35,770 bases of DNA. Source: Rickettsiales bacterium. Lineage in GTDB: Bacteria > Pseudomonadota > Alphaproteobacteria > Rickettsiales > UBA1997. Numbering within the stretch: position 1 is the stretch's first letter; each line of letters starts with the position of its first letter. Below are positions 1,051-35,770 of the stretch, in pieces. The stretch spans positions 1 through 35,770 of the forward strand of contig CANMEW010000001.1 in NCBI GenBank assembly GCA_947496905.1. The letters run 5' to 3'. A program made the translations under genes and the position numbers. The notes below the pieces were generated by a model. It did no database searches and was not told where the DNA came from. It worked only from the letters and a program-made list of their open reading frames with translations.

Positions 1051-1089
1051 TAAAAATTTCTCAAAAAAATCTAATTTTTAGAGGCGCCC
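1051..1089 (-). repeat. solo half-copy (one arm) of the family A palindromic element
   Basis: taaaaatttctcaaaaaaatctaatttttagaggcgccc matches the terminal ~40 bp of the full copies, for example 35059-35098. It lies in the 52-bp glyQ/thrC spacer. Confidence 0.6.
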
Positions 1090-2509: not shown

Positions 2510-2566
2510 TTTAGTACTTTGGGGAATGATTTGATTTTTTAAGGTGAGCTTAGAGCGTGTCTTTAT

Positions 2567-2706
2567 GGCGCCTCTAAAAATTAGATTTTTTCGAGAAATT
2601 TTTAGGCATCCAAATTTTTGAGCAGGAAAGCGTACTACTTGTACGTGCTCGCGAAAAAATTTGGTAACGAAGAAATTACCGAAAAAAGCAATTTTTAGAG
2701 GTGCCC
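2567..2706 (+). mobile_element. family A MITE-like palindromic element (subtype with the ggcatccaaattttt core)
   Basis: Termini are ggcgcctctaaaaatt ... aatttttagaggtgccc. It is near-identical to the reverse-oriented copy at 34958-35098 and has a central gtac...gtac palindrome. ORF 2661-2945 is an artefact of this repeat. Confidence 0.75.
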
Positions 2707-10217: not shown

Positions 10218-10989
10218 TTTTTTTGAAATTGCAGGACGAAAATTTACTTCGCGCCTCTTAGTCGGCACTGGTAAATACAAAGATTTTCAAGAAACCGCTG
10301 CCGCGATTAATGCCAGCGGCGCTGAAATTGTTACCGTTGCAGTACGTCGCGTGAACATCGAAAAAAAATCTGAGCCCATGCTGCAAGATTTTCTCGACCC
10401 CGCAAAATACACTTACCTCCCCAACACTGCCGGATGTTTTACTGCCGCTGATGCCGTGCGCACATTGCGCCTAGCCCGCATGGCAGGGGGATGGAATTTA
10501 GTGAAGTTAGAAGTTCTGGCGGATGAAAAAACTCTCTACCCAAAAGTTGTTGAAACCATCAAGGCCGCGGAATTGCTGGTCAAAGACGGTTTTGATGTAA
10601 TGGTCTACACTTCTGACGACCCAATCATTGCCAAAGAACTCGAAGACATCGGCTGCTGTGCAATCATGCCGCTAGCGGCTCCAATAGGATCTGGTCTTGG
10701 AATTCAAAATCGCCTCAACATCGAATTCATTGTTGAGCAATCAAAAGTTCCGGTGCTGGTTGATGCCGGAGTCGGCACGGCATCTGATGCTGCAATCGCA
10801 ATGGAGCTTGGTTGCGACGGAGTGCTAATGAACACCGCAATTGCCAAAGCTAAAAATCCAATCCTCATGGCGCATGCCATGAAGCTTGCAATTGAAGCTG
10901 GTCGCGCTGCTTACCTCGCTGGTAGAATGGAAAGAAAAAAATTCGCCTCACCCTCATCTCCCGCCGCTGGAAAAATAAATCTCTCCTAA
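10210..10989 (+). CDS. thiG: thiazole synthase
   Basis: 259 aa. LLVGTGKY, the LVKLEVL Schiff-base lysine region and PIGSGLGI are typical of ThiG. The GTG start overlaps the cdsA end by 8 nt. Confidence 0.9.
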
Positions 10990-11209
10990 GGAGCCTCTGA
11001 AGCACCAAGTTTTTTAAAAAGTCTCGGCGCCGAGACTTTTTAAACTTTTTACTCAGTTCAGGACTGGCGCGGCTCTGTAAATTTAAATTCGCAAAAAACT
11101 AACAGAAACTCACCATTCAAAAAATGAGCCCTAGAGCTGCAAGGGTTCAACTTTTTAAAATCGTATTTTTTCTGCAGTGTTTTTTGCACTCAATACTGAC
11201 TTCAGAGCC
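10990..11209. mobile_element. long variant related to family A (same ggNgcctctgaa termini, different interior)
   Basis: ggagcctctgaag ... cttcagagcc inverted termini with TAA on both flanks (10987-10989, which is the thiG stop, and 11210-11212). The interior carries a terminator hairpin. Confidence 0.55.
11016..11042 (+). terminator. intrinsic terminator after thiG, located inside the repeat variant
   Basis: aaaaagtctcggcgccgagacttttt: a perfect GC-rich palindrome followed by a T run. Confidence 0.65.
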
Positions 11210-15200: not shown

Positions 15201-16205
15201 CTAATTCGGTGTAGAGCCTGATTTACCGCGGAATAAATATTTTTTTTTGAGGAAAATAATTTGCAGCATTGCCGTAGCAACAATGGCAATGACCATCCAG
15301 CTAAAAGCATTGCTGTTGTCAACGCCGGGAACGCCTCCAATATTGACGCTGAAGATGCTGGTGAAAAAAGTTAGCGGGATAAAAATTGAAGCAACGAGTG
15401 ACAAGTTGTACATGCTTTTGTTCAACTTTTCAGTAAGTCCGTGAAAGAGTTCGTCATGCAGAATTTGTGAACGATCACGTACCTCATCGACCTCCTCAAT
15501 CATCAGAGTGATGTGATCTAGATGTTCTTGGAAATGCCTTTTTGCCCAATCGTCAATCCATTCATGATCGCAAATTCGTAGCTTGGCAATTGCCTCTCTT
15601 TGCGGGGAGAGGTAGCGTTTGAAGACGGTTGATTGCGTTCTGATTTTTAAAACTTCCTCACGAAAAACCACATTGTGAGTGGTCATGATTTTTTCTTCCA
15701 AATCATCAACTTTTTCACCGAGAGCGTAAAGGAATGGAGAGGTAACGGCAAGAATTTGGTAGAGAAGATTGTACAAAAATTCGCCGGAATTTTTGATTGT
15801 TTTTCCGGAATCAATTTGTGCACGAATGTCTGACACCGCCTTCATGTTGCGACGCTGCAACGTAATGATGCGGTATTTGTCAACCCACATGCGGATTGAA
15901 ACCATGTCTTCTGGTTCGGAACTTTGATTGAGATTAACGCCGCGCAAAATGATGAGAAGGCCATTGTCGAACTCCATGACCCGAGGGCGAGTCTCTTCGG
16001 CAATGAGGGCGTCAATGATTAGATGATCGAGATAGTTAACTTCGCGCTCTAACCACTTCTTGGTTGATTTGTTGTTGGCATCAAGGTGAACCCAAGCCAA
16101 GCCTTCATTCTTTAACTCTTCCGACACTTTCTGATTGTCCAATTTCACCGACTTACCGTCAGCGCCGAAAGAGTAGGAGAAAAGAATGTGGCTTGATGCG
16201 GTCAT
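15201..16205 (-). CDS. zntB: CorA-family divalent cation transporter, ZntB-like
   Basis: 334 aa. It has two C-terminal TM helices with FSVNIGGVPG, similar to the ZntB GVNxGGxPG loop. Confidence 0.72.
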   Translation of the reverse strand: MTASSHILFSYSFGADGKSVKLDNQKVSEELKNEGLAWVHLDANNKSTKKWLEREVNYLDHLIIDALIAEETRPRVMEFDNGLLIILRGVNLNQSSEPEDMVSIRMWVDKYRIITLQRRNMKAVSDIRAQIDSGKTIKNSGEFLYNLLYQILAVTSPFLYALGEKVDDLEEKIMTTHNVVFREEVLKIRTQSTVFKRYLSPQREAIAKLRICDHEWIDDWAKRHFQEHLDHITLMIEEVDEVRDRSQILHDELFHGLTEKLNKSMYNLSLVASIFIPLTFFTSIFSVNIGGVPGVDNSNAFSWMVIAIVATAMLQIIFLKKKYLFRGKSGSTPN

Positions 16206-16955: not shown

Positions 16956-17965
16956 CTAAATCCATCCGCTAGATATTCCTCCGCCGTAGATTGCACTCTT
17001 AGATTTTAATCTCTCATCTCTCATTTTGGAGAAGTCGTCCCCAGCATGGTAGGAAGAGCGAGTTAATGGACTTGAAGAAACCATTAGAAATCCTTTGCTG
17101 TAGGCCATTTTTTTGTAGAACTCGAATTCGTCTGGATGGACGTAGCGATCAACCGGAGCATGGCGCAATGTTGGGCGCAGATATTGTCCAATGGTCAGAA
17201 AGTCGATGTCAGCGCAGCGCATGTCATCCATCACCTGCAGAACTTGTTCCTTGGTTTCTCCAAGACCAACCATCAATCCAGATTTTGTAAACATCGTAGG
17301 GTCGATTTCTTTGACGCGCTTCAAAAGCCAGAGAGAATGAAAGTAACGAGCACCGGGACGAATTGTGGCGTAAAGCCCAGGTACGGCTCGATATTGTGAT
17401 TAAATACGTCTGGCTTCGCGGCAACGACTTTTTCTAACGCACCATTTTTACGCAGAAAATCTGGCGTTAAAATTTCGATTGTAGTTTGCGAAGACTTTCT
17501 ACGCACATTCTCGATGCATTTCACAAACTGATCTGCGCCACCATCAGCTAAGTCATCGCGATCAACAGAAGTAATTACGATGTGTTTCAGGCCAGAAACC
17601 TTTGCGACATCACCAACATTTTCTGGCTCGTGAGGATTTACCACATCTGGCTTGCCAGTCTCAATGTTGCAAAAAGAGCAGGCTCTTGTGCAGACGGAGC
17701 CTAGGATCATCACCGTTGCATGCTTTTGTGCCCAGCATTCGCCGATGTTTGGACATGCTGCTTCTTCGCAAACAGTGTGTAATTTTTTTGAGTTGAGAAG
17801 CTCTTTGGTTTCGTAATAGCCCTTGGAAACAGGCGCTTTAACACGGATCCAATCCGGTTTGCGCTCCATTTTTTCTTTAGGAAAATTTTCGGCAAAGCCC
17901 ATCGCGTCCTTGTTGTCGCGCTTAGCTATTTGCCCTGACTCTCTTTTTTCTTCGCGGGTTTGCAT
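16956..17965 (-). pseudogene. lipA: lipoyl synthase interrupted by a 1-nt frameshift
   Basis: ORF 17321-17965 carries [13 protein letters not shown] and the radical-SAM CTRACSFCN, then ends ...FNHNIE plus out-of-frame residues. ORF 16956-17324 carries the LipA C-terminus. Reading ATCGAG-(N)CCGTACCTGGG in the other frame gives (T)[29 protein letters not shown], which is contiguous LipA. Confidence 0.85.
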
Positions 17966-17968
17966 TAA

Positions 17969-18056
17969 TACCGAATCTGATTGAAGACACCGAACTAATC
18001 TTTGTCAGATTCGGCATGGGGTTCCCCACAACGTGGGGCGCGACTCATGTCGCGTA
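17969..18056 (-). repeat. family B multi-hairpin element
   Basis: Its reverse complement aligns with 32667-32763. Both carry the shared hairpins cgcgac-atga-gtcgcg, ccccac-gtt-gtgggg and ccgaatctga...tcagattcgg. It fills the lipA/phoU spacer. Confidence 0.65.
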
Positions 18057-18772: not shown

Positions 18773-19128
18773 AGAGAGCCTCTAAAAATTAGAATTTTTC
18801 GAGGAGTTTGCAGTGACGGCGGAGCCGGAAAAATGCATCGCATTTTTAACTGACAAATGACGCAAGGCCGTAAGGCCTGAGTAATTTGCGACTTGTCGAT
18901 AAAAAATAAAATTTTCAAGTAAAACGGGAATGAGCGAAGCGAATCCTTAGGCATCCGAATTTTTGAGCAGGAAAGCGTACTACTTGTACGATTCGAGCAC
19001 AGGGATCGAGCTTAAGCTCGATGCCCGTTCTTACTAAAAATAGCTTCGCATTTTTTTAACGCTCGAACCTCGCGAGCAAATTTGTCTGACGACAAAATTA
19101 CCGGAAAAAGCAATTTTTAGAGGCACTC
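18773..19128 (+). mobile_element. family A element carrying two nested insertions
   Basis: Family A left arm (18773-18809), core (18947-18990) and right arm (19070-19128) are interrupted by ~138 bp (18810-18946) and ~79 bp (18991-19069). The second insert contains the perfect palindrome atcgagcttaagctcgat. Confidence 0.7.
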
Positions 19129-23365: not shown

Positions 23366-23938
23366 ATGAAAAAATTTTTACCGTACTTCCCGCTGCTTTT
23401 TTTGGTAGGGTTGATTGGAATTTCGACTTACAATTTAAACAAAAAACAAAGCGCCGAACAGGAATTGCGGAACTCCGTTGATGATGATAAAAAAAACCTT
23501 CACTTCACTTCAGTAAAAATCGTCTTACCGGAATTTTCTTTACCCGATCTTCACAATGACAAACTAGATCTTTCTAGAAATGACTTTTTGGGGAAATATT
23601 CGATCATAAATTTTTTTGCTTCTTGGTGCACAACTTGCCGTGAAGAGCATGAAATTTTGATGCGCTTAAAAAGGGAGGGAATTGCTGATATGTACGGTGT
23701 AGCTTGGCATGACATCGATGATAACACCATGTCTTACCTTAAGAAAAATGGTGATCCTTTCATAAAAGTTGCAGCAGATAATCGTGGACTCTTTACCAAA
23801 ATAACCGGCATTGAAGCGGTTCCAGAAACTGTAATTGTTGATCCAGAAGGAGTCGTTGTAATGCGCTACCGCGGCAATTTGCAGGAATTCTCAATTGATG
23901 AAATTGCGCAATTCATCAAGAAGCATAAACATCGCTGA
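23366..23938 (+). CDS. ccmG: thiol:disulfide interchange protein (DsbE/CcmG, TlpA-like thioredoxin)
   Basis: ATG 23366 gives an N-terminal TM anchor. The thioredoxin motif FFASWCTTCREEH is present. It converges on pyrF with a 23-nt overlap. Confidence 0.78.
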   Translation: MKKFLPYFPLLFLVGLIGISTYNLNKKQSAEQELRNSVDDDKKNLHFTSVKIVLPEFSLPDLHNDKLDLSRNDFLGKYSIINFFASWCTTCREEHEILMRLKREGIADMYGVAWHDIDDNTMSYLKKNGDPFIKVAADNRGLFTKITGIEAVPETVIVDPEGVVVMRYRGNLQEFSIDEIAQFIKKHKHR

Positions 23939-24728
23939 TTAGATTCACAAATTTTTGAGTAGCTTCTTTTGGATGAGTATCGCGGGTGATTGGTCTACCG
24001 ACCACGAGGTGAGAGGCACCATTGGCAAGTGCAGTTTTGACATCGGTAACACGTTTTTGATCTTCAATCAAATTTGAACTTCGTTCAAATTTGGAGCCAA
24101 TCGAATTGCTGCGCACGGAATCAATCCGCGCATCCGCAATAGATTTATTTTCCTTAAAAAGCTCGGTGTCTTTACTCAGCCTGATTCCAGGCGTTACGAT
24201 GAGAAAATCTTTTCCGCAATTTTCTCTAATCTTCTTTGCCTCAAGAGCCGAGGCAACAACTCCATCAAGTCCAAATTCAAGAGCTAGTTTGGCCCTGCCA
24301 AGCACTAAATTTTCGAGTGTATTTCCCGCCTTAAAACCAACAGCTTCCACCGTTCTGTTAAAAATTTCTTGGTCGTAAGTGGTGAGAACGGTTACACCAA
24401 CAACCTTCATTCTACCCTTTGCCTGCGCCGCTGCTTGAATGATGTCTTCACTGATGGCGTGGATCGTAACCATGTCAACTTGATGCTGCGCCAGATTTTT
24501 AATTGCGCGCGAAACTGTGGTGGGGATGTCGTGAAATTTTAGATCAGCGAAAACTTTTTTGCCTTCATCCTTCAAAAATTTGATGAGGTCGAAGTAACCG
24601 CCGCTCATCATCAGCTCTAGTCCAACTTTGTAAAAAACCGCCTCATCGCCAATTGCCCTAACAAGATTCTTTGCCTCCTCAATAGTTGGAACATCGAGGG
24701 CAATGATTAATTTTTCTTTCGCATTCAT
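23916..24728 (-). CDS. pyrF: orotidine 5'-phosphate decarboxylase carrying an in-frame repeat insertion
   Basis: The motifs LIIALDV, DLKFHDIPTTV, TPGIR and VVGRPI are present. I prefer ATG 24728 over the track GTG 24743, which lies inside the flanking repeat. Confidence 0.9.
   Translation of the reverse strand: MNAKEKLIIALDVPTIEEAKNLVRAIGDEAVFYKVGLELMMSGGYFDLIKFLKDEGKKVFADLKFHDIPTTVSRAIKNLAQHQVDMVTIHAISEDIIQAAAQAKGRMKVVGVTVLTTYDQEIFNRTVEAVGFKAGNTLENLVLGRAKLALEFGLDGVVASALEAKKIRENCGKDFLIVTPGIRLSKDTELFKENKSIADARIDSVRSNSIGSKFERSSNLIEDQKRVTDVKTALANGASHLVVGRPITRDTHPKEATQKFVNLISDVYAS
24063..24158 (-). repeat. family C (RPE-like) element inserted in frame in pyrF
   Basis: 96 nt, 32 codons (FKENKSIADARIDSVRSNSIGSKFERSSNLIE) between the conserved GIR and DQKR motifs. 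It is 88 percent identical over 75 nt to the intergenic copy at 2829-2903. Confidence 0.75.
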
Positions 24729-24737
24729 GGCAATTAA

Positions 24738-24879
24738 GGGCACCTCTAAAAATTAGATTTTTTCGAGGAATTTTTAGGAAGAAAATTTGCGAGCAGGAAA
24801 GCGTACTCTGATGTACGTGCTCGCGAGCAAATTTATCTGACGATAAAATTACCGGAAAAAGCAATTTTTAGAGGCACCC
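24738..24879 (+). mobile_element. family A MITE-like palindromic element (reference copy)
   Basis: gggcacctctaaaaatt ... aatttttagaggcaccc with TTAA on both flanks (24734-24737 and 24880-24883). ORF 24679-24864 is an artefact of it. Confidence 0.8.
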
Positions 24880-25482
24880 TTAAAACTTTTTCTCTTCACC
24901 AGTTAGTAGGCGGATAAGATTTTCTTTGTGCTTGATTGTGATTAGGACGAATAGGAGGCAGCAGAAAATTATTTGGGAATTTGGGGCTTCGAAGTGGGAC
25001 GACAAAATGATCGAGGAAAAAATTGCGATTAGCGAAGAAATTGCAGAGATGCGAAATAGGACAAAGGAAATGATCCAAAAACAAACCATTAAAAATCCGG
25101 TGATTGGATCAAGCGCTGACAATACTGCAACTGCAGTTGCTACGCCTTTCCCACCTTTGAAATTTAGATAAATTGGGTAGATGTGACCAATTACCGCAAC
25201 AGCAGCGACAAAGACCAAAAATAAATGCAAATTGCCAACATCGTAAAAAGCAAATCTTGCCGCAATGATCATCGCCGCGCCTTTCAAGCCATCCAGAATT
25301 AAAGTGACGAAGCCGAGTTTTTTACCAACGACTCTCGCAACATTTGTGGCGCCAATATTTTTTGACCCCAATTCACGAATGTCTTTTTTTGCGAAGACTA
25401 TTGCCAAAATTAAGCCGAATGGAATCGCCGCAATCGCGTAGGTTAGGATGAGAAATAGGATTTGGTAAAGAAGGGTGATCAT
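24880..25482 (-). CDS. plsY: glycerol-3-phosphate acyltransferase PlsY
   Basis: 200 aa polytopic membrane protein with GSKNIGATNV and FKGGKGVAT. Confidence 0.93.
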   Translation of the reverse strand: MITLLYQILFLILTYAIAAIPFGLILAIVFAKKDIRELGSKNIGATNVARVVGKKLGFVTLILDGLKGAAMIIAARFAFYDVGNLHLFLVFVAAVAVIGHIYPIYLNFKGGKGVATAVAVLSALDPITGFLMVCFWIISFVLFRISAISSLIAIFSSIILSSHFEAPNSQIIFCCLLFVLITIKHKENLIRLLTGEEKKF

Positions 25483-25991
25483 TAACTGTTATCGGTGGGA
25501 GTTGTGTTTTTGTTTTTGCGAAAAGCATCGAGGGAAATGACTTTTGCCGATAAATCGATGGTTTCAGATTTGGCCGCACTATTCGCACCCCTTACTCCAT
25601 CAAGCCCCACAGACTCCAAAAAATCTCCAGCATTGTCGTAACTAACGCTAAATTTTAGCGCAAAATTCATCGAAGGATCTGCGAAGGCAGTGACTGCTTT
25701 GTAAGGCACCGCTAGTTTTTCATACTTACCATTAAAGCTCAAAGAGACTCTAAACAAATTCTGCTCAACCGCCAAACTTTTATATTGGTATTGAATAGCG
25801 ATGGTCATTTCTTCAGGAAATTTTTCGATCAGATGCTTTGGAATGGAAACTTCCGGGAACTTAGTCAAGAAGGTGACTAAAAAATAATGTTTTCCTGGTA
25901 GGCCGATCTTTTCGACTTTTTTCAGAGTTTCGTAAATCACTGATCTCATCGAGTTTTCGATGATCTCATCATATCCGATTAGATCTTGCAT
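25482..25991 (-). CDS. sspB: ClpXP adaptor SspB (alphaproteobacterial type)
   Basis: 169 aa. LPGKHYFLVTF...FPEEMTIAIQYQY...LSFNG...VPYKAVTAFADPSMNFALKF matches SspB-alpha. The C-terminal ISLDAFRK resembles the ClpX-binding tail. Confidence 0.8.
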   Translation of the reverse strand: MQDLIGYDEIIENSMRSVIYETLKKVEKIGLPGKHYFLVTFLTKFPEVSIPKHLIEKFPEEMTIAIQYQYKSLAVEQNLFRVSLSFNGKYEKLAVPYKAVTAFADPSMNFALKFSVSYDNAGDFLESVGLDGVRGANSAAKSETIDLSAKVISLDAFRKNKNTTPTDNS

Positions 25992-26062
25992 GAATGCGAA
26001 AAAAACAAATTAAGAAAATACAGAATCTGGCTAGCTGCTACCAACTGAAATTATATGAGCAG

Positions 26063-26965
26063 CTATTGGATGGCAATTCCATATTTCTTTCCTAGGTAGC
26101 CATTAACAGCTTTGATCTCTGACTTTTTTAAAGCTCGATCAAAAACAATTACTTCTGAAACTAACATCTCGTTTGACTGAATTACCATGCTCATTGGATG
26201 AGCATGGATCACAAGTCTATCGGCTCCTAAATTTAAGTTTGCTGCGCCACCAGATGATGCCACTCCAGCAGCTGGAACTGAGGTATTACTGTTATTGTAG
26301 ATCCAAACATTATTGGTTAAAGAATTATCAATCACCATGACAGTCGCGTAATTACTATTACCGATTAGTCCGCAAGGGTTGGTATAGCTGTCGTTAAAAT
26401 ATCCAGCAAAACCACACTGAGTATTATTCGTAGCAAACATTGCTTGTGCATTATTTAGTGTAGTATTGGTACCCTGTCCCATGAGTACCTGCGTACCAGA
26501 CATGGTGGTAGCTCTCCACACAATAACCATTGTGTAATCATCGTCGCCAGCGCCAATTGGCGTTGTTGTTGTTTGTAGAAAATCTGATGTACTCTCAAAT
26601 TTTATTGAGGGTAGTCCATTTATTCCGTTTGCGATGTAGACTGGTCGCGCCGCATCTGTTGATTGTGTAAGATTAATTTTATTGAGCGATTGCGGGTTAG
26701 AATCGGCCCAAGAAGAAATTTTATCTAAATCACTCGGATTGTTACCATTGGTAGCGCTTGTAACCGCAGTTTCCGAAGTGGTTTCTAGCCACAAAGTCAG
26801 ATTTGCCATCGATGCTACATCTGAACTTTTTGTAAGAGACCTGCCAGAGGAAAGTTTCATTTCTCCAACCAACCTGCTGCCTTGAGTTACTCCAGCAACT
26901 AAAATTCCAATTATTAAAATTACGATCGATAGCTCAATAAGTGAGAATGCTTTGTTTGTTTTCAT
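26063..26965 (-). CDS. prepilin-type N-terminal cleavage/methylation domain protein with C-terminal LamG-like (concanavalin A-like) domain
   Basis: MKTNKA|FSLIELSIVILIIGILVAG is a class III signal with Glu at +5 and Ala at -1. The C-terminal SEVIVFDRALKKSEIKAVNGYL resembles the terminal strand motif of LamG_3 domains. Confidence 0.75.
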   Translation of the reverse strand: MKTNKAFSLIELSIVILIIGILVAGVTQGSRLVGEMKLSSGRSLTKSSDVASMANLTLWLETTSETAVTSATNGNNPSDLDKISSWADSNPQSLNKINLTQSTDAARPVYIANGINGLPSIKFESTSDFLQTTTTPIGAGDDDYTMVIVWRATTMSGTQVLMGQGTNTTLNNAQAMFATNNTQCGFAGYFNDSYTNPCGLIGNSNYATVMVIDNSLTNNVWIYNNSNTSVPAAGVASSGGAANLNLGADRLVIHAHPMSMVIQSNEMLVSEVIVFDRALKKSEIKAVNGYLGKKYGIAIQ

Positions 26966-26995
26966 GATGTGTGATATGTAAATACAGATTCATTC

Positions 26996-27486
26996 GCGGG
27001 ACTTCCGGTGGTTTTTTTCTGTTGCCAGGAAAAAACCTAAACCCCGACAAAGTCACTTATGCTAAGCAGCTAAAGCCACTGGAGCAAATTCGAAATTGTC
27101 ATTAGCAAAGTTATCGTTTGCGTTTACTTTTTTTGAACGGATGCGATGAATTCATCCGAAGATGCATTCACGGCCGGCAGTTTCTCAACCGAGTAAAGTC
27201 AATCCCTTTAGCGCATGTCGAAAGCTATTCACCCCCATGTTAGGACTTTTTACAAAATTCGCTTCTGACAATAAGTGGATGGTGAATTGGCGCGCAGAGT
27301 CGGGGTGTATTTGACATACACGTAGACTCGAGCACCGAAACAACCGCGCAATTATTGTCAGAAGTTAGAATTTTGTAAAAAGTCCAATGGTGGAGGTGCT
27401 GGGTACCGCCCCCAGGTCCATGACGGTTATTGCGAAGAGAGTTTATCACCATGTCCTTCCGCCCTTGCGGGCGAAGGCGGCGCGCA
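26996..27486 (-). ncRNA. ssrA: two-piece (circularly permuted) tmRNA gene; outer boundaries approximate
   Basis: The acceptor piece ends ...CUGGG-GGCGGUA-CCCAG-CACCUCC-ACCA at 27388. The coding piece starts GGGGGUGAAUAGCUUUCGAC at 27236, and its first 7 nt pair with CACCUCC, including a G3:U wobble. A 151-nt spacer (27237-27387) forms a ~32-bp stem. The tag ORF ends in ALAA. Confidence 0.85.
27062..27121 (-). other. tmRNA tag reading frame ANDNFANDNFEFAPVALAA plus stop
   Basis: AAAAAAAGUAAAC precedes the resume codon GCA. The frame reads GCA AAC GAT AAC TTT GCT AAT GAC AAT TTC GAA TTT GCT CCA GTG GCT TTA GCT GCT TAG. Confidence 0.8.
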
Positions 27487-27573
27487 ACTTAGGTACGAAA
27501 ACAATTTTAACAAGTTATTGTTCCCAAGTTTTTTGTTTTTACTTTTTTACTCCCCAAAAAAATTTAGAAAAAA

Positions 27574-29175
27574 ATGTCCAAAACAATCCCTTCCTCCTGC
27601 GAATCAAATCCCACAAATCGAAAAAAAGTCATCATTCTTGGATCGGGTCCGAACCGCATTGGACAAGGCATCGAGTTTGACTACACTTGCGTTCACGCCG
27701 CATTCGCTTTTAAAGAAAATGACGTGGAAGCAATCATGGTGAATTGCAATCCAGAAACAGTTTCAACTGACTACGACACTTCTGATCGCCTTTATTTCGA
27801 GCCACTCACCGCTGAAGACACAATCGAGCTCATCAAAAAAGAAATGACCAATGGCGAATTGCTCGGCGTCAATGTGCAGTTCGGAGGTCAAACCCCACTT
27901 AGTCTCGCCAAATTTTTGCAAGACGAGGGTGTGCCAATCATCGGCACCTCACCAGACATGATCGACCTCGCTGAAGATCGCGATCGCTTCAAAAAATTAC
28001 TGCAAAAACTCGACCTAAACCAGCCACAAAATTACATCGCCTATTCCGCAAAACAGGTTCTTGAACAAGTTAATGAGGTCGGATTTCCGGTTGTTGTTCG
28101 ACCTTCCTACGTGCTTGGTGGGCGCGGCATGGCAATCGTTTACAATGAATCCTATTTGATGAAATATCTCGTTGAATATGCAGATGTTTTTGAAACCGGA
28201 CCATTGCTGCTCGATAAATTTTTAACCGATGCAATTGAGGTGGATGTGGACGCGCTGTGCGATGGAGAAGAAGTGTTCGTTGCTGGCATCATGCAACACA
28301 TTGAAGAAGCCGGCATCCATTCTGGAGATTCTGCCTGTTCAATTCCGCCTTATTCTCTTTCTCAAAAAATGATTGATGAGGTGAAGGTAGCTACGAAAAA
28401 ACTGGCGCTAGCCTTGAATGTGAAGGGCTTGATGAATGTTCAATATGCCATTCAAGATGAAAGGCTTTTTGTTTTAGAGGTGAATCCAAGGGCATCTCGT
28501 ACCGTGCCATTCGTGGCTAAAGCAACTGGCATCGCTGTGGCAAAAATCGCCTCGCTAATCATGATTGGGAAAAAACTTTCCGAGTTCAAATTGCAGGAAA
28601 AAAAGCTGAATTATTTTGCCGTCAAAGAAGTGGTTTTCCCATTCGCCCGCTTCAGCAATACTGACACAATTTTGGGACCAGAAATGAAATCGACTGGAGA
28701 AGTGATGGGGATCGACAAAACCTTCGCCCTAGCCTTCGCCAAAGCTCAAGTTGCAGCTGGAGTAAAACTCACCACCGATGGCTTAGTTTTTCTTTCCGTC
28801 AAAGATTCTGACAAAAAATATCTGCCAGAAATTTCCAGAAAATTAATTGAGATCGGATTTAAACTTGTTGCCACTCGCGGCACCGCAAAATTCCTCGCCG
28901 AAAATGACATCGCAGTTACAATCGTGAATAAAATTACCGAGGACAAACCTCACGTTGTTGACATGATCGATCGCAAGGAAATTTCCCTCGTCATCAACAC
29001 CACTGAGGGCGAGCAAGCCACGAAGGACAGCTTTTCAATTCGTCGCACTTCTTTGATGAGAGGCGTGAGCTACACCACCACAATCTCCGGAGCCAAAGCC
29101 TTGGTTGATGCCATCGAGGCCTACAAAAATAACGGCTGCAAATTTGAAGTCCGCGCTCTGCAAGATTTGGGATAA
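27574..29175 (+). CDS. carB: carbamoyl-phosphate synthase large subunit, C-terminal half only
   Basis: 533 aa. It starts [36 protein letters not shown], which corresponds to the start of the second ATP-grasp repeat of CarB. It continues through the MGS-like allosteric domain. No N-terminal half lies upstream. Confidence 0.9.
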
Positions 29176-29317
29176 AGGAACCTCTGAAAAACCATCTTTT
29201 CCGGAAATTTTTTCGTTACCAAATTTTTTCGCGAGCACGTACATCAAGGTACGCTTTCCTGCTCAAAAATTTGTTGCCTAAAAATTTCTCGAAAAATCTA
29301 GGTTTTTCAGAGGCTCC
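29176..29317 (-). mobile_element. family A MITE-like palindromic element (ctctgaaaa terminus variant)
   Basis: aggaacctctgaaaaacc ... tttttcagaggctcc. It is flanked by TAA 29173-29175 (the carB stop) and TAA 29318-29320. Confidence 0.8.
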
Positions 29318-29341
29318 TAAAATTTTCTTAGACCCAGATCC

Positions 29342-30733
29342 CTACTTCAAATTCTTCACAATCTCTTCGACGACTTTTTTAGCATCGCCGAAAATCATTA
29401 GCGTGTTGTCCTTGTAGAATAGCTCATTCTCAACTCCGGCGTAGCCCGCTGCCATTGAACGCTTCACAAAGAAAACAGTTTTTGCATGCTCAACATCCAA
29501 AATTGGCATGCCGTAAATTGGACTGTCCTTGTCAGTTTTTGCTGCTGGATTAGTGACGTCATTGGCACCAATCACGAAGGCGACATCGGTTGATTTGAAC
29601 TCGCCGTTAATGTCATCCAACTCGAAAACTTTTTCGTAATCGATGTTGGCTTCGGCGAGTAGAACATTCATGTGACCCGGCATTCTTCCCGCTACTGGAT
29701 GAATCGCGAATTTCACATTCACACCCGCTTCTTCTAGCAACTTCGTCATTTCCGCAACCGCATGCTGCGCACCTGCAACCGCCATTCCGTAACCAGGAAT
29801 AATTACCACAGAGGAAGCGCCTTTCATTAAATAAGCGGCATCTTCGGCATTACCTTGCTTGGTTGGTCTTTGCTCCTTCTCCTCCCCAGTAACCGCTTGA
29901 ACCTGATCGCCAAATCCAGAAAACATCACATTGAGAATTGAGCGATTCATCGCCTTGCACATGATGTAACTGAGGATTGCGCCAGATGCACCAACCAAGG
30001 CTCCAGCAATGATGAGAAGTGGATTATTGAGCGTGAAACCGATGCCACTTGCCGCCCATCCCGAATAGGAATTTAGCATGGAGACCACGACCGGCATGTC
30101 TGCACCACCAACGGGAGCAATCAGCATGAAGCCGATGAAGAAGGAAAGTAGCGTGAGTAGGATGAATAAAAATTTTGAACCAAAAATAAAAAATGCTAGC
30201 AGCACAATTCCCAAGCCAATCGCCACATATTTAGAAGATTTTTTTGGGTCTTTTTTGAAGATGATGAATTTTGATTTCATGTTGCCGTTGAGCTTGAGGA
30301 AGGCAACGATGGAGCCGGTGAAGGTGATGGCGCCGATTACTGCACCAATGCCCATTTCGATCAGGCTAGAGAATTTGATGTGATTATCTTCGACTAGATT
30401 GAAAGAATTTGGCGACCACAGAGCGCTTGCCGCGATTAGCACTGCAGCCAATCCAACCAAAGAGTGAAAGCCGGCAACAAGTTGTGGCATTGCGGTCATT
30501 TTAACTTTTCTGGCGATGTAGGCGCCAATCCCGCCGCCAATCGCGATTGCCACAATGATGGTAAAAACATTTTTAACCTGCGGCAAAAACAGCGTGGTTA
30601 GAATCGCTAAACCCATTCCCGCCATGCCAAAATAATTTCCGATGCGCGAAGTTTTTGGCGAGGAAAGTCCGTAGAGCGAAAGAATGAAGAGGGTGGCTGA
30701 AACTAGGTAGGAGAAGGCAATGAAGCTGTTCAT
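29342..30733 (-). CDS. pntB: NAD(P) transhydrogenase subunit beta
   Basis: 463 aa with an N-terminal polytopic membrane domain and a C-terminal NADP(H)-binding domain ([30 protein letters not shown]). Confidence 0.93.
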
Positions 30734-31045
30734 GATTTGAAGATTTTATTTGGTTTAGGATTTATTTTTAAACCCAGATCCGTCATTGGAAATTTTAGGA
30801 GAGTTTAGTTCTGGCTACAAAAGCTGAACCCGCGCCTAGGGCTGCTCTAAGACCACTCGCTTAGAGCCGCATGCGCTCAAGGCAGTTTTTTAAAAAATTA
30901 CTAATTCCATTTTTTGCAAATCAAACTCTGTAACGCCCTGAATTTAGGGCATCGAGCAAAAAGTCCAATTTTCTACGCGCCGTAGAAAATTCAAAAAACG
31001 CGCCAAAATTATGCAGCAAAAAACACCAAAATAATTCAGGGCTAA

Positions 31046-31192
31046 GGGCGCCTCTGAAAATTAGATTTTTTCGAGAAATTTTGAGGAAAAAAATTGCGCC
31101 GAGCGCAGAAAGCTTACTCTGATGTACGTGCCGTGCTGCGCAAATTTATCTGACGATAAAATTACCGAAAAAAGCAATTTTTAGAGACACCC
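31046..31192 (+). mobile_element. family A MITE-like palindromic element
   Basis: gggcgcctctgaaaatt ... aatttttagagacaccc. The flanks are cTAA (31042-31045) and TTAA (31193-31196). TTA at 31193-31195 is the queH stop codon on the minus strand. Confidence 0.8.
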
Positions 31193-31828
31193 TTAAGAGT
31201 AAAATTCTTCGCAGATTTTGATCTCGTCTCGACCATTTTTTACGCGCCGATTGTTGCTGTCTCTCAGACTAAAAATGCAACCGCAATATTCCTGTTTGTA
31301 GAATTCTTCGCGCTTGGCGATTTCGTACATTCTTGCGGCACCGCCAGACTTGCGCCAATTGTAGGTCCAATAGGTGATGTCATCGTAATTTTTTGCAGCA
31401 CGAATTCCGCATTCATTAATTTGATCCATATTTTTCCAACGCGAAATGCCGAGTGACGAAGTGATGATTTTAAAACCATTTTCAGCGGCGTAGAGTGCCG
31501 TGCGCTCAAAGCGCATGTCGAAACATTTAGTACAGCGCAATCCGCGCTCCGGCTCCAACTCCAAACCTTTGGCGCGCGCGAACCAATTTTGAACATCGTA
31601 ATCAGCATCGACGAAGGGAATTTCTAACTTTTCAGCAAAGCGAATATTTTCTTCTTTGCGAATTTCATATTCTTTTTTGGGATGGATATTTGGATTGTAG
31701 AAAAAAATCGTGACGTCAATTCCGGACTTTTTCATGCGCTCCATTAAGTCTCCTGCGCAAGGCGCACAGCAGCTATGCATGAGAACGCGATTGTCGGTGG
31801 CGTTGGATGGGAGTTGTAATTCCTGCAT
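31193..31828 (-). CDS. queH: epoxyqueuosine reductase QueH (DUF208)
   Basis: Start chosen at ATG 31828 (MQELQ...). The motifs HSCCAPC and CxxC...YCGC are typical of QueH. Confidence 0.82.
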
Positions 31829-31853
31829 AATTTTAACTGAATTTTTTGTAAAA

Positions 31854-32722
31854 ATGCCCGAATTGCCAGAGGTAGAGACGATCCGCAAAGGCTTGAAAAG
31901 TTTGAGTGGAAAGAAAATCGAGAGAATTTTTCGCTCAGAAAAAAATTACGAACTGCTTCAAACCTTGATTTACAAGGCTTAGACGGTGCAGAGATTTTGA
32001 AAATCACTAGAAGAGCTCGTTACTTAATTTTTCAATTCAGCAACGAAAAAAGTCTAATCATTCACTTGGGAATGAGCGGAAAACTCACGCTGAGCAAAAC
32101 CTTCAATCACCTAAAGCACGACCATTTTGCCTGCAAATTTAACGATGCTTCTTGGTTAATTTTTAACGATCCGCGACGTTTTGGATTCATTGACTTGGTC
32201 GAAACTAAAAATTTAGAAAATCATCAAATGCTGGAGAATCTCGGTCCCGAGCCGCTTTCGAAAGATTTTAATTTTGCTTACCTTCGACAAAAACTGCGTG
32301 GCAAAAAAATGAACATCAAGACCAGCATGATGGACAATAAAATTGTTGTTGGGGTCGGAAATATTTACATCAACGAGTCGTTGTTCGACTCAAAAATTTT
32401 ACCACTACGCGAAGCATCAAGCTTGGAAGATTTTGAAATTAAAGCGCTCATCACCTCAATCAAAAAAATCATAAAAAAAGCAATCGCCTTGGGAGGGTCA
32501 TCAATCTCAGATTACGTTAATGCCAAAGGAGATTCGGGGAATTTCCAAAACTGGTTTAAAGTCTACGGGCGCGCGGGGCAAAAATGTTTGCATTGTAAAA
32601 GTTCGATCGAAAGACTCATCCGGAGCGGCCGCTCGAGCTTCTTCTGCCCAACCTGTCCAAATTCTTTACGCCGCACGAGCGGCGCCCCACGTTGTGTGGA
32701 ACCCCATACCGAATCTGATTAA
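31854..32722 (+). pseudogene. mutM: formamidopyrimidine-DNA glycosylase with a frameshift in an A7 run
   Basis: [14 protein letters not shown]... (31854-31982) stops after 42 aa. The next frame reads [33 protein letters not shown]...HLGMSGKL and runs to the zinc finger CLHC...CPTC. One extra A in 31939-31945 would restore a single ORF. Confidence 0.85.
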
Positions 32723-32763
32723 TACGAAAAAAACAGTTCGGCGCCCTTCAATCAGATTCGGTA
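32667..32763 (+). repeat. family B multi-hairpin element overlapping the mutM 3' end
   Basis: It aligns with the reverse complement of 17969-18056. It contains the mutM stop (32720-32722) and encodes the last ~18 residues after the zinc finger. Confidence 0.65.
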
Positions 32764-32768
32764 CAATC

Positions 32769-33170
32769 ATGAAAAAAAACTTAGCGTTAATTCTGTCAGT
32801 TTTTCTGCTTTTTTCTTGTTCAGAAAATTTTTCTACAAAACCAAAAATTACTGAGGAGCAAGCCTCAAAAGAATTTGTGCAGGGTAGCGAAGATATTCCG
32901 CTTTTAGTAGGAATGGATAAAACTTCCGACGAAAGTTTGGGCTTCGATTCTGACTTAGGCAGCATTGCGTCCTCCAACTACTCAACCGAGATTGATCTCC
33001 AAAAAGTTAGAAATTTTTATTTAAAAACTTTGCCACAAATGGGTTGGAATCTAGTGCAAAATAACGAGGCAAAATCTGGCTTTAAGCGCGAGAAGGAAAA
33101 GTTAGAAATCGAATTCACGAAGCAGTCACCAAAAAATATTGTGAGATTTTTTACTTCCTCGGATCTGTAG
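32769..33170 (+). CDS. hypothetical lipoprotein
   Basis: ATG 32769 gives MKKNLALILSVFLLFSCSEN (lipobox LFSC). The track ORF start at 32520 overlaps mutM and the repeat. Confidence 0.6.
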   Translation: MKKNLALILSVFLLFSCSENFSTKPKITEEQASKEFVQGSEDIPLLVGMDKTSDESLGFDSDLGSIASSNYSTEIDLQKVRNFYLKTLPQMGWNLVQNNEAKSGFKREKEKLEIEFTKQSPKNIVRFFTSSDL

Positions 33171-33190
33171 GTGGTGATTCGAAATCTAGG

Positions 33191-33346
33191 CATTGTTAGC
33201 TAATTATTTCTTTCGGGATTTTTCGTTAATTTTTAGCGATTTTTTTACAAAATTTTGCCGATGCATTCTACATACCTCAAAAAATTTTGTGAAAAAATGA
33301 GCCAAAATTGACGGAAAAGAGCGGAGAAAATAATTAGCTAACAGTG
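33191..33346. repeat. long imperfect palindrome (about 65-bp arms), single copy in the window
   Basis: tgttagctaattatttc (33194-33210) pairs with gaaaataattagctaaca (33326-33343). The arms remain similar inward. The right arm contains the stop codon of the Fe-ADH gene. Confidence 0.55.
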
Positions 33347-34503
33347 TCTAAGCAAGTAAAGCGGTTTCGGATAAATTTTGCATTGGTCACGCAAGCAGCA
33401 TATTCAGCATTCGAAAGCCCTAATGACCTCGGAGAAGTTTTAATTTTGAAGTGTGAAAAAATCGCCTTTAGGCGCGATTCATCGAAATAAATTTTCTGCA
33501 AATCTTTTTGAATTTTTTTCCAATCCACCTCCGAAGGTGCGCTGATCTCAGCCTTCATTTCAAACTCTTTCCCGCATTGCAGCGCGATTTTTTTTCCAAA
33601 AAATTTTTCTAATTTTTTTAGCGAAAATTCGCATTTTTTAACAAGCGGTAGTGCGCAATTTTCCAACAGGTTTTTTTGCAACCTCGCTGAAGTTAATGTC
33701 GTCACTGCGATTTGCGCCCCGTGCAAAATTTCCCTGACAATTTTCGGATATTTCATTCCAATTGTGTGGGCAATTAGATGCTCCGATTGACTTGCTGGGT
33801 AAGAGCCTCCGGCAATTGTCATCCCCCTCCCAGAAAGTAATAAAATTTCAATTAATAGCTTGAGAAAAGCATCGTCGCGCAAAGAAAAATTCTGAAAATT
33901 TTTGGTGAAAAAATTCATTTTTTTTGCGAGTAGTAAGAAGGGTTTTTGATCGAATTCTGTGCCGCAAATTTTGTGGGATAAATACCAGTCAAACCAGCAG
34001 GAATAAAAACAAAGACTGTCACCAATGCCAGCCTTTGTAAGCGCCAATGGCGCTGATTGTAAAATTCCTAAATCACAAAAAATTACCAAAGGCAATGTGG
34101 CCGGAAGAGTTTTTTTGTGACCAGAAATTGTGATTGAAGCATTTTTGGATGCGTAGCCGTTCATCGATGCAGCTGAGGCGAAAATTACGTAAGGAATTTT
34201 TTTCTGCGCCGAGGTAAATTTACACAAATCATTGATGGTGCCGCTTCCAAGACCAATTAGCAGATCACATTTTTTTGTAGCAGCGGCAATTTTTTTTAGA
34301 TTTTTTTCGTCAGCATGCGGATTTTTTAGCAGTAAAATTTTGTCGATTTTTTTGATAAAATTTTCGTCAAAAAAACGCCGACAATTTTTCCAAATTTTTT
34401 CATCACTGACGAATAAAATTTTGCCATCCGCAAAGCCTAATTGAGCAATTAAGCTTTCTGCTTTCACCGCTAGAGCCGTCGCTATTTCTACATTTCCTGA
34501 CAT
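33334..34503 (-). CDS. iron-containing alcohol dehydrogenase family protein (Fe-ADH_2 / glycerol-1-phosphate dehydrogenase-like)
   Basis: 389 aa. The glycine-rich GLGSGTINDLCKF nucleotide-binding motif and the HxxxH-type region SEHLIAHTIG are present. The specific substrate cannot be inferred. Confidence 0.55.
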   Translation of the reverse strand: MSGNVEIATALAVKAESLIAQLGFADGKILFVSDEKIWKNCRRFFDENFIKKIDKILLLKNPHADEKNLKKIAAATKKCDLLIGLGSGTINDLCKFTSAQKKIPYVIFASAASMNGYASKNASITISGHKKTLPATLPLVIFCDLGILQSAPLALTKAGIGDSLCFYSCWFDWYLSHKICGTEFDQKPFLLLAKKMNFFTKNFQNFSLRDDAFLKLLIEILLLSGRGMTIAGGSYPASQSEHLIAHTIGMKYPKIVREILHGAQIAVTTLTSARLQKNLLENCALPLVKKCEFSLKKLEKFFGKKIALQCGKEFEMKAEISAPSEVDWKKIQKDLQKIYFDESRLKAIFSHFKIKTSPRSLGLSNAEYAACVTNAKFIRNRFTCLDTVS

Positions 34504-34612
34504 TAAAACTTGTGGGATAAAAATTGATTTTTATGTTGCCGCGCTCTTCTCGCGCTCCTCGTTGCCGCAGCTTCCTCTCATCAAAATTGCCAAATCAAAC
34601 TCAACTTAAGCA

Positions 34613-34957
34613 ATGGACAATCTTCAATTATTCCTACTAGTTCTTCAGATAATCATTGCCCTTGCTCTAATAATTTTAGTTCTGTTACAAAAATCAGACG
34701 GTGACATTTTGAGCGGCATTGGCGGCGGTTCAGGAGGCTTAAATTCTGCAATGTCTGGCAAGGCTGCGATGAATGCTTTAAGCAAAACCACAATGATTTT
34801 AAGCGGCCTTTTCATGCTTAACTGCCTAGTTCTCGCTTCAATTTCGAATGCCTCCAATAAAGCGATTAAAAAGGATTTAGAAAAAATTATCGAGCAACAA
34901 GAAAAAATCGAAGGCGCCACAACTCCAACCACTCCAGCCGTTCCCCCAGTAGAATAA
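34613..34957 (+). CDS. secG: preprotein translocase subunit SecG
   Basis: 114 aa. There are two TM helices separated by the glycine-rich loop LLQKSDGDILSGIGGGSGG. Confidence 0.88.
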   Translation: MDNLQLFLLVLQIIIALALIILVLLQKSDGDILSGIGGGSGGLNSAMSGKAAMNALSKTTMILSGLFMLNCLVLASISNASNKAIKKDLEKIIEQQEKIEGATTPTTPAVPPVE

Positions 34958-35098
34958 GGGTATCTCTAAAAATTGCTTTTTACGGAAATTTTGTCGTTAC
35001 CAAATTTTTTCGCGAGCACGTACAAGTAGTACGCTTTCCTGCTCAAAAATTCGGATGCCTAAAAATTTCTCGAAAAAATCTAATTTTTAGAGATACCC
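34958..35098 (-). mobile_element. family A MITE-like palindromic element
   Basis: gggtatctctaaaaatt ... aatttttagagataccc, with perfectly complementary 9-bp tips. It is flanked by ATAA on both sides (34954-34957, containing the secG stop, and 35099-35102). Confidence 0.8.
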
Positions 35099-35114
35099 AT
35101 AAACCTCTTTCAAC

Positions 35115-35770
35115 ATGACAAAAACAACCGCTCTAAACCAAGCGCATCGTAATCAAGGCGCCAAAATGGTGGAGTTCGCTGGCTACGACATGCCAGTTCA
35201 ATATTCCGATGGCATGCTTAAAGAGCATGAATGGACGCGCTCTGGCAATGTTGGAATTTTTGACGTCTCGCACATGGGGCAATTCATCGCTGAGGGCGTA
35301 GAGGTAGTAAAATTTTTATCCCACATCACTCCAACTGATTTTTCTCTCAGCACTCCTGCACTAGCTAAATACACTGTCCTCACTAATGCAGAAGGCGGAA
35401 TTATCGATGACCTAATCATTACTAAACTTACCGACACAAAATTCTTCATCGTGCTCAATGCCGGCTGCAAAAAAAAGGATATGGAGTGGATTCGCAAAAA
35501 TTTGCCCGCAGGAATTTCTTTTACAGAACTCTCTGATCGCTCACTAATTGCTGTTCAGGGCGGTAAGGCCGAAGAAGTTTTAAACAGATTTTTGACTGCA
35601 GGAAATTTAGCGCAATTGCCTTACATGAATCTCGGCACTTACAAGCTAAAAAATGGCGAGGAAGTTTTTATCAGCCGCACAGGATACACTGGTGAAGATG
35701 GTTTTGAGGTTTCGATCAAAAATTCTGCCGTGGAAAAATTTTGGCTAGATTTGTCAGCGCAATCTGAGGT
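35115..35770 (+). CDS. gcvT: glycine cleavage system aminomethyltransferase T, 5' partial
   Basis: It is not in the ORF track because there is no in-window stop. My translation from ATG 35115 is MTKTTALNQAHRNQGAKMVEFAGYDMPVQYSDGMLKEHEWTRSGNVGIFDVSHMGQF... and it stays open to the window end. Confidence 0.9.
   Translation, partial: MTKTTALNQAHRNQGAKMVEFAGYDMPVQYSDGMLKEHEWTRSGNVGIFDVSHMGQFIAEGVEVVKFLSHITPTDFSLSTPALAKYTVLTNAEGGIIDDLIITKLTDTKFFIVLNAGCKKKDMEWIRKNLPAGISFTELSDRSLIAVQGGKAEEVLNRFLTAGNLAQLPYMNLGTYKLKNGEEVFISRTGYTGEDGFEVSIKNSAVEKFWLDLSAQSE

Follow-up and report, generated by a model that had tools for sequence, protein, structure and literature searches.

IS5-type miniature elements with 4-bp target duplications at gene 3' ends of an uncultured lake alphaproteobacterium

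Why do short palindromic repeats come to rest so often on the stop codons of the genes beside them, and which enzyme could have put them there? The question is raised by a stretch of 35,770 nucleotides from a Rickettsiales bacterium (GenBank assembly GCA_947496905.1, contig CANMEW010000001.1, positions 1 to 35,770; 41% GC), hereafter called the window, which contains six full copies and one half copy of a 141-147-bp repeat without a transposase open reading frame (ORF). This repeat, named here family A, occurs in the window at about one copy per 6 kb. An original prediction, made from the DNA letters of the window, had proposed that the elements are flanked by TAA-containing duplications, that one duplication copy is often the stop codon of the adjacent gene, and that either true targeting of stops or purifying filtering lies behind this placement. 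Our analysis identifies family A as a previously undescribed family of miniature transposable elements with inverted repeats (MITEs) whose ends are those of an IS5-family insertion sequence (IS); the end sequence is new. It is very probable that these IS5-type MITEs generate 4-bp duplications and that their old copies were kept on stop codons and gene 3' ends by filtering in a compact genome.

The ends of family A both carry GGGNACCTCTAAAAATT, in inverted orientation, with the inverted-repeat consensus GGG[CT][AG][CT]CTCT[AG]AAAATT, and the whole element is nearly palindromic. When folded as RNA, the copies next to carB and plsY give long hairpins of -52.6 kcal/mol (z -6.9) and -56.9 kcal/mol (z -7.7), respectively. 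The comparisons below rely on 25 full copies, with 6 from the window, 10 from the metagenome-assembled genome (MAG) CAMDJN01 (the MsH MAG) and 9 from metagenome contigs. A tip-pattern scan of one-genome-per-species contigs returned 12 loci in CAMDJN01 and one locus in another MAG, and a metagenome scan with a 20-mer gave 37 hits, mostly chance matches in AT-rich DNA, about one third of which had a tip of the family type or resembled the element over more of its length. The window sequence itself is also present in lake-metagenome assemblies and in MAG GCA_964202855.1, and about 54 kb of the scaffold of the window genome was examined. Mutual identity amounts to 71-92% among the window copies and to 97-99% among those of the MsH MAG; the values indicate a recent burst, with young copies, for the MsH MAG and older copies for the window. 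Rfam searches with gathering and E-value thresholds matched no family to the elements, the sole Rfam match in the window being a permuted alphaproteobacterial transfer-messenger RNA (tmRNA) at 27007-27517. A distant DNA search of a plasmid collection with the MITE found no match, and the searchable literature contains no mention of the tip motif apart from chance matches in unrelated papers.

What the insertions duplicate can be read from their flanks, provided that the element boundary is fixed at the conserved tip, as was done for all flank tests. Identical 4-mers border 19 of the 25 full copies on both sides (cross-pair match rate 11%, binomial p = 7e-14). In other registers, matching flanks were seen for none of the 25 copies at 5 bp, two at 3 bp and none at 2 bp, and the 3-bp count lies below its cross-pair background of 14%. 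Read on either strand, the duplicated 4-mers are TAAA and TTAA (five times each), ATAA (three times), and CTAA, TGTA, TGAA, CTTA, TGAT and ACTA (once each). The duplication is real, exactly 4 bp long and AT-rich, and TAA is neither fixed nor required. The flank sequences and coordinates quoted in the original prediction were correct, and the flanks are true target-site duplications, but of a variable 4 bp rather than of TAA/NTAA, as TGTA, TGAT and TGAA also occur; the 3-bp TNA-type duplication that it had mentioned for some IS5-family subgroups is contradicted by the register counts (2/25 versus 19/25).

The carB copy (29177..29317, minus strand) is a case in point. It lies between the convergent genes carB (ORF 27574-29175) and pntB, begins with GGAACC and ends with GGCTCC, and has TAAA on both sides; the left TAAA (29173..29176) holds the carB stop TAA (29173-29175) and the right one occupies 29318-29321. 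A duplication is therefore present where a TAA repeat at 29173-29320 had been proposed, but its unit is TAAA and it extends to 29321. This copy belongs to a short-tip subfamily (GGAAC-CTCTGAAAAACC) with a tip one G shorter, a boundary confirmed at locus L013, where GGAACC...GGTTCC is enclosed by CTTA and CTTA. The plsY copy (24738..24879, plus strand) separates plsY and pyrF, which run in the same operon direction on the minus strand, and reads GGGCACC...GGCACCC between two TTAA (24734-24737 and 24880-24883), the plsY stop being the TTA at 24880-24882 on the minus strand. Between the co-directional secG and gcvT, the secG copy (34958..35098, minus strand) is flanked by ATAA at 34954-34957 and 35099-35102, with the secG stop TAA at 34955-34957. 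The queH copy (31046..31192, plus strand), 3' of queH, has CTAA (31042-31045) and TTAA (31193-31196) as flanks, which agree at three of four positions, and the right flank contains the queH stop (TTA at 31193-31195, minus strand). Duplications are imperfect or absent in the two remaining full copies of the window. One of them (2566..2706, plus strand) is placed between a thrC-like gene (1091-2509, minus strand) and a NUDIX gene, with non-matching flanks TTTA and GGAA; the other (18774..19128, plus strand), enlarged to 355 bp by internal insertions, occupies the divergent phoU/purD spacer between TAAA and CAAA (three of four positions).

These flanks leave almost nothing for the idea that TAA/TTA is part of the element, as an extended terminal inverted repeat, or that a 3-bp TNA sequence is duplicated. 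It could appeal to the fact that all window flanks matching on both sides contain TAA and that TTAA is its own reverse complement. Yet the flanks are direct and not inverted, and they vary between copies (TGTA/TGTA, TGAT/TGAT, TGAA/TGAA, CTTA/CTTA, ACTA/ACTA); the register test already refutes duplications of 2, 3 or 5 bp as well as a TAA belonging to the inverted repeat.

The source of the ends is found in metagenomes. The terminal 16-17 bp of family A (GGGNACCTCTAAAAAT) match the inverted repeats of intact IS5-family IS of about 1.25-1.45 kb, and since these terminal bases equal the IS inverted repeats, we assign family A to the IS5-type MITEs. A whole IS of about 1250 bp (L050), starting with GGGAACCTCTAAAAATTAGATTTTTT after TTAA and finishing with AATTTTTAGAGGTTCCC before ATAA, codes for a 342-aa transposase containing the Pfam domains DDE_Tnp_1 (PF01609) and DUF772 (PF05598). 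This protein scores 263.7 bits against the NCBIfam IS5-family model NF033581 (cut-off 140) and is 50% identical to annotated IS5-family transposases on plasmids. Complete IS of about 1.45 kb, with a 354-355-aa transposase and a GC content of 41-44%, were recovered at L062 and L063-L066; GGGCACCTCTAAAAAT is present at both ends of the ~1.45-kb copies, in inverted orientation. Their flanks are TTAA/TTAA at L066 and TTAA/TTTA at L063, and those of both L050 and L063 match at three of four positions. The metagenome assembly of L062 has an accession number near that of L003, an assembly that also contains window sequence. The predicted IS5-family source transposase was thus borne out by intact elements that combine the same 16-17-bp ends with a DUF772/DDE_Tnp_1 transposase.

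A further locus (L055, 36.5% GC) brings MITE and IS physically together, as a related transposase gene is split there by a family-A MITE flanked by the duplication TAGT; the right end of this IS reads TTTTTAGAGGTGCTC, followed by TTAA. Taken as an excision test, removal of the MITE and of one TAGT copy restores the reading frame, and the resulting junction GDPLVSLNEQINW aligns with GDPLKALNAVVDW of an intact homologue. Used as a query, the repaired protein retrieved many intact relatives of at most 88% identity, the ~1.45-kb copies above among them, which were found independently of the tip pattern. Compared with InsH of Escherichia coli IS5, the transposase is 27% identical and colinear (E=2e-32).

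Family A therefore bears comparison with IS5 in the first place. It shares with IS5 and IS5-family MITEs a DDE transposase with an N-terminal DUF772 domain followed by DDE_Tnp_1, inverted repeats that start with GG, and a 4-bp T/A-centred duplication, with CTAA and TTAA among the targets. As in other IS5-family MITEs, the short non-autonomous derivatives have only the terminal repeats in common with the IS. Differences are the low identity to InsH, the ends themselves (GGGNACCTCTAAAAAT versus GGAAGGTGCGAATAAG in IS5), and the hosts of family A, which are uncultured alphaproteobacterial MAGs from lake metagenomes. The tetranucleotide that IS5 duplicates follows the consensus Py-T-A-Pu (PMC5493358), whereas the target of family A is looser and A/T-richer (TAAA, ATAA, TGTA and others).

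Other small repeats resemble family A in part. Correia elements of Neisseria and IS630/Tc1-type MITEs are likewise about 100-150 bp long, dense, gene-adjacent and hairpin-folding, with inverted-repeat ends, and they are mostly transcribed together with the genes that they adjoin. These MITEs duplicate the dinucleotide TA. A Correia/IS630-type identity was rejected, the 2-bp register being empty (0/25) and the duplication of family A measuring 4 bp. Rickettsia palindromic elements (RPEs) are palindromic repeats of about 100-150 bp in compact alphaproteobacterial genomes as well; they typically stand in frame inside coding genes and are not known to have a transposase or a duplication. Unlike RPEs, family A is intergenic, duplicates 4 bp and is partnered by an IS; an RPE-like repeat does exist in the window, at 24062-24154 within pyrF. 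In Streptococcus pneumoniae, the small repeat families BOX, RUP and SPRITE insert beside or into one another in intergenic DNA (PMC10969869). Family A forms similar clusters, since it occurs beside a second repeat family (with ATACCGAATCTGA ends) and inside an IS, but it is unrelated to them in sequence and derives from another parent IS family.

A near-palindromic sequence, in an organism whose permuted tmRNA is alphaproteobacterial, could also suggest non-transposon palindromes related to RPEs or to repetitive extragenic palindromic sequences and bacterial interspersed mosaic elements (REP/BIME), spread by recombination or by a REP-associated tyrosine transposase (RAYT). Mini-hairpin derivatives of about 35 bp, common in a related MAG, and the presence of another repeat in frame inside pyrF would fit such an origin. 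Against it stand the precise 4-bp duplications, the identity of the ends to those of IS encoding a DDE transposase and the missing match to any Rfam family, which largely refute it and make it highly improbable. REP/BIME sequences associated with a RAYT are palindromes of 20-40 bp that carry a conserved GTAG/CGTC head, show no duplication and are accompanied by a RAYT gene of IS200-like type (PMC3733652). A REP/RAYT system was accordingly rejected for family A, with its 141-147 bp, its 4-bp duplication and its DDE-type partner.

If the IS5-type reading is followed, the sequence of events would be as follows. The IS of about 1.25-1.45 kb, encoding a DDE transposase of 342-355 aa, would supply the ends used by the MITE, and its transposase would bind these ends in trans. 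The enzyme would then cut the two strands 4 bp apart at AT-rich tetranucleotides (TTAA, TAAA, ATAA and similar), and repair of the gaps would duplicate the 4 bp. Where a TAA stop forms part of these four bases, the duplication copy nearer the gene should still close the ORF and the insertion should be harmless. In a compact genome with short spacers, a stop-codon tetranucleotide would be among the few tolerated targets, and selection would remove promoter and coding insertions over time, so that old copies would become concentrated at gene 3' ends and stops. Both mobilisation in trans and selective filtering are steps that we infer.

How far does this scheme account for the stop codons? The stop is inside the duplication or flank at plsY, carB, queH and secG, that is, in four of the six full window copies. 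Five of seven copies had been counted on stops before, a number that included an element next to thiG whose membership could not be confirmed. The claim that the host ORF is left intact holds, because the duplication regenerates the stop codon and lets it survive. For a null expectation, the pre-insertion sequence was rebuilt and all positions leaving every gene intact were counted. Positions that would bring a stop into the duplication make up 1.7% of these harmless positions without weighting and 7-11% when weighted for target sequence, either by a matrix from the copies outside the window or by the rule 'contains TAA/TTA'. The four of six observed against 7-11% expected give p=3e-4 to 2e-3.

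As the window had been picked for its stop-codon pattern, the independent copies weigh more. In the MsH MAG, one copy out of ten has a stop in the duplication (4.8% expected, not significant), and among the metagenome copies one out of nine. Exact overlap outside the window (2/19) is thus about as expected, and enrichment at stops, tested against the available sites, was found for the window but was not replicated elsewhere. A looser association is seen in the same copies: 7 of the 19 follow a long ORF's stop at a distance of no more than 8 nt, compared with about 8% expected (p=6e-4), and in two of these seven the duplication begins directly after the stop. An additional 10 kb of the window's own scaffold contributed a single copy, which is degenerate and lies at 13 nt from a stop.

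Between targeting and purifying filtering, the two options left by the original prediction, filtering is favoured. A stop pattern due to targeting should be no weaker in young copies than in old ones, yet exact overlap is at chance in the 19 independent copies, lowest in the MAG with the youngest copies (1/10) and highest in the window with its old ones. At three of the four stop-codon sites, the pre-insertion spacers were also very short (about 5, 12 and 21 nt at plsY-pyrF, secG-gcvT and carB-pntB, respectively), so that an AT-rich 4-mer containing a TAA stop was almost the only harmless landing place. The stop-codon pattern of the window is real, but we favour the view that it is largely explained by target sequence, genome compaction and selection, with selective retention acting on a preference for TTAA-like targets.

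The opposite view deserves attention even though we regard it as unlikely. Stops or 3' ends might be truly targeted as AT-rich, easily melted DNA, or the host might retain the hairpin as a stabiliser or terminator of its mRNA. The stop count of the window and the near-stop excess of the independent copies both speak in its favour, as do the very stable hairpin folds, and IS5 hotspots reportedly depend on DNA destabilisation besides sequence (PMC5493358). Moreover, a tip abuts the queH 3' end in the window and in a related MAG (L014), the two differing in subfamily and orientation. Outside the window, however, stops are overlapped exactly at no more than chance level, and copies are also found in divergent promoter spacers (2566-2706 and 18774-19128) and inside a transposase gene (L055). 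A consensus scan for intrinsic terminators over 24000-35770 detected no terminator-like GC stem with a T-run at the element ends; of the elements, the queH copy alone has a small hairpin, in its interior. Two copies are situated in co-directional pairs (plsY-pyrF and secG-gcvT), where a strong terminator would be harmful, and the availability null counts promoter-bearing spacers as free targets, which overstates the enrichment. A preference of the transposition mechanism for positions at or after stops, together with a recruitment of the hairpins as RNA structures in operons and 3' ends, is given a correspondingly small chance. If it were true, a selfish element would systematically reshape gene 3' ends in a reduced alphaproteobacterial genome.

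Several observations weigh against the IS5-type reading with filtering and should be set beside it. No transposase gene was found by tblastn in the window or in L001, within the ~54 kb of scaffold read, which is why mobilisation in trans in the window genome is only inferred. Only 6 of the 19 perfect duplications (TTAA five times, CTAA once) fit Py-T-A-Pu, the rest being one- or two-base variants. Four of the ten young MsH copies are located within 8 nt of a stop, compared with 8.4% expected (p=0.007), and this near-stop enrichment among young copies may result from filtering or from a site preference. At plsY-pyrF, two relatives (L060 and L061) do support an insertion: they keep the order sspB-plsY-pyrF with an 11-12-nt spacer, no element and a single TAA, as had been anticipated for empty sites. 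These relatives, the closest available for the comparison, are distant (pyrF 57-58% identical), and their spacer represents an ancestral junction, not a strict empty site. Finally, the sole presence/absence polymorphism found in this species lacks the form of a clean insertion with a 4-bp duplication. The same-species assembly L068 (8087-8335) has 250 extra bases right after the right tip at ~2706/2707, which neither the window nor a third assembly (L069) contains. This block is made up of a ~105-bp repeat with ATACCGAATCTGA ends and one more family-A copy; being a composite of two repeat families with one base common to its junctions, it was rejected as a clean filled/empty pair. It could reflect a deletion, stepwise insertions or an assembly difference.

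IS-derived MITEs are a known kind of element, and no new kind comes to light with family A. What it adds is a high-density IS5-type MITE in an uncultured lake alphaproteobacterium, with its autonomous partner identified, and a TAA-bearing 4-bp duplication as a concrete way for a transposon to land on a stop without damage to the gene. Old and young bursts differ in the placement of their copies. There is also a benefit for annotation: in such MAGs, gene calls should improve if the elements are masked and if assembly breaks and ORF ends inside element tips are expected.

An ORF end of this type is present in the related MAG mentioned above, where queH (L014, 848-868) extends into an element tip by three codons and is closed by the TGA within CTCTGA. 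This queH thus owes its present C-terminus and stop to the element.

Some elements deviate from the full-length form. The half copy of the window (1051..1089, minus strand) consists of one tip and subterminal sequence; ORF 1091-2509 has its TAG stop (1091-1093, minus strand) within TCTA (1090-1093), the outer flank of this half copy. The thiG element (10990..11209, 220 bp), which follows the thiG stop TAA at 10987-10989, resembles a family-A tip only in its first 12 bases (GGAGCCTCTGAA). Its membership in family A is unproven, as it has no second copy in the sequences examined and its flanks CTAA and TAAG mismatch in the 4-bp register. Tip positions 4-6 often show the same variant at both ends, with GGGTAT...ATACCC in the secG copy and GGGAAC...GTTCCC in the MAG, which points to distinct master elements as templates or to a correction of one end by the other. 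Mini-hairpins about 35 bp long that consist solely of the two tips (GGGAACCTCTAAAAATTAGATTTTTTTGAGGTTCCC) occur commonly in the related MAG (L005-L015; e.g. L007 3041-3079, L008 2389-2427, L010 5274-5312 and L011 5996-6034). Their 4-bp flanks match in some cases (TTCA/TTCA at L010) and do not match in most; they may be internal-deletion derivatives.

The pntB gene (29342-30733), between carB and queH, is bracketed by the oppositely oriented family-A copies 29177-29317 and 31046-31192. At the loci of six relatives, pntB (86-88% identical) lies instead between a SIS/CBS-domain gene and efp. The placement of pntB in the window may result from a repeat-associated rearrangement. A search for empty sites through pntB relatives (86-89% identical, L017-L022) allowed no comparison, as pntB gene order is not conserved and no family copy is present there.

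A third repeat family (...TCAGATTCGGTATGGGGTTCCCCACAACGTGGGGCGCG...) occurs in the window at 18005-18056 and 32667-32718, and in L068 at 15250-15460. Outside the window it often adjoins short-tip family-A copies, as in the MsH MAG (L013 and L006) and in the 250-bp block of L068. Lipoyl synthase (window 16956-17965) is one product of 336 residues on scaffold_255 (L001) and is called as two ORFs in the window (16956-17324 and 17321-17965), a split that may be due to a frameshift or to an assembly difference. A different repeat of 93 nt, 87% identical between its copies, is found at 24062-24154 and 2812-2904. The former copy is inserted in frame in pyrF (23916-24728, minus strand), where it contributes about 32 residues (...ELFKENKSIADARIDSVRSNSIGSKFERSSNLI...) that three homologues lack; it resembles the in-frame insertions known for Rickettsia palindromic elements.

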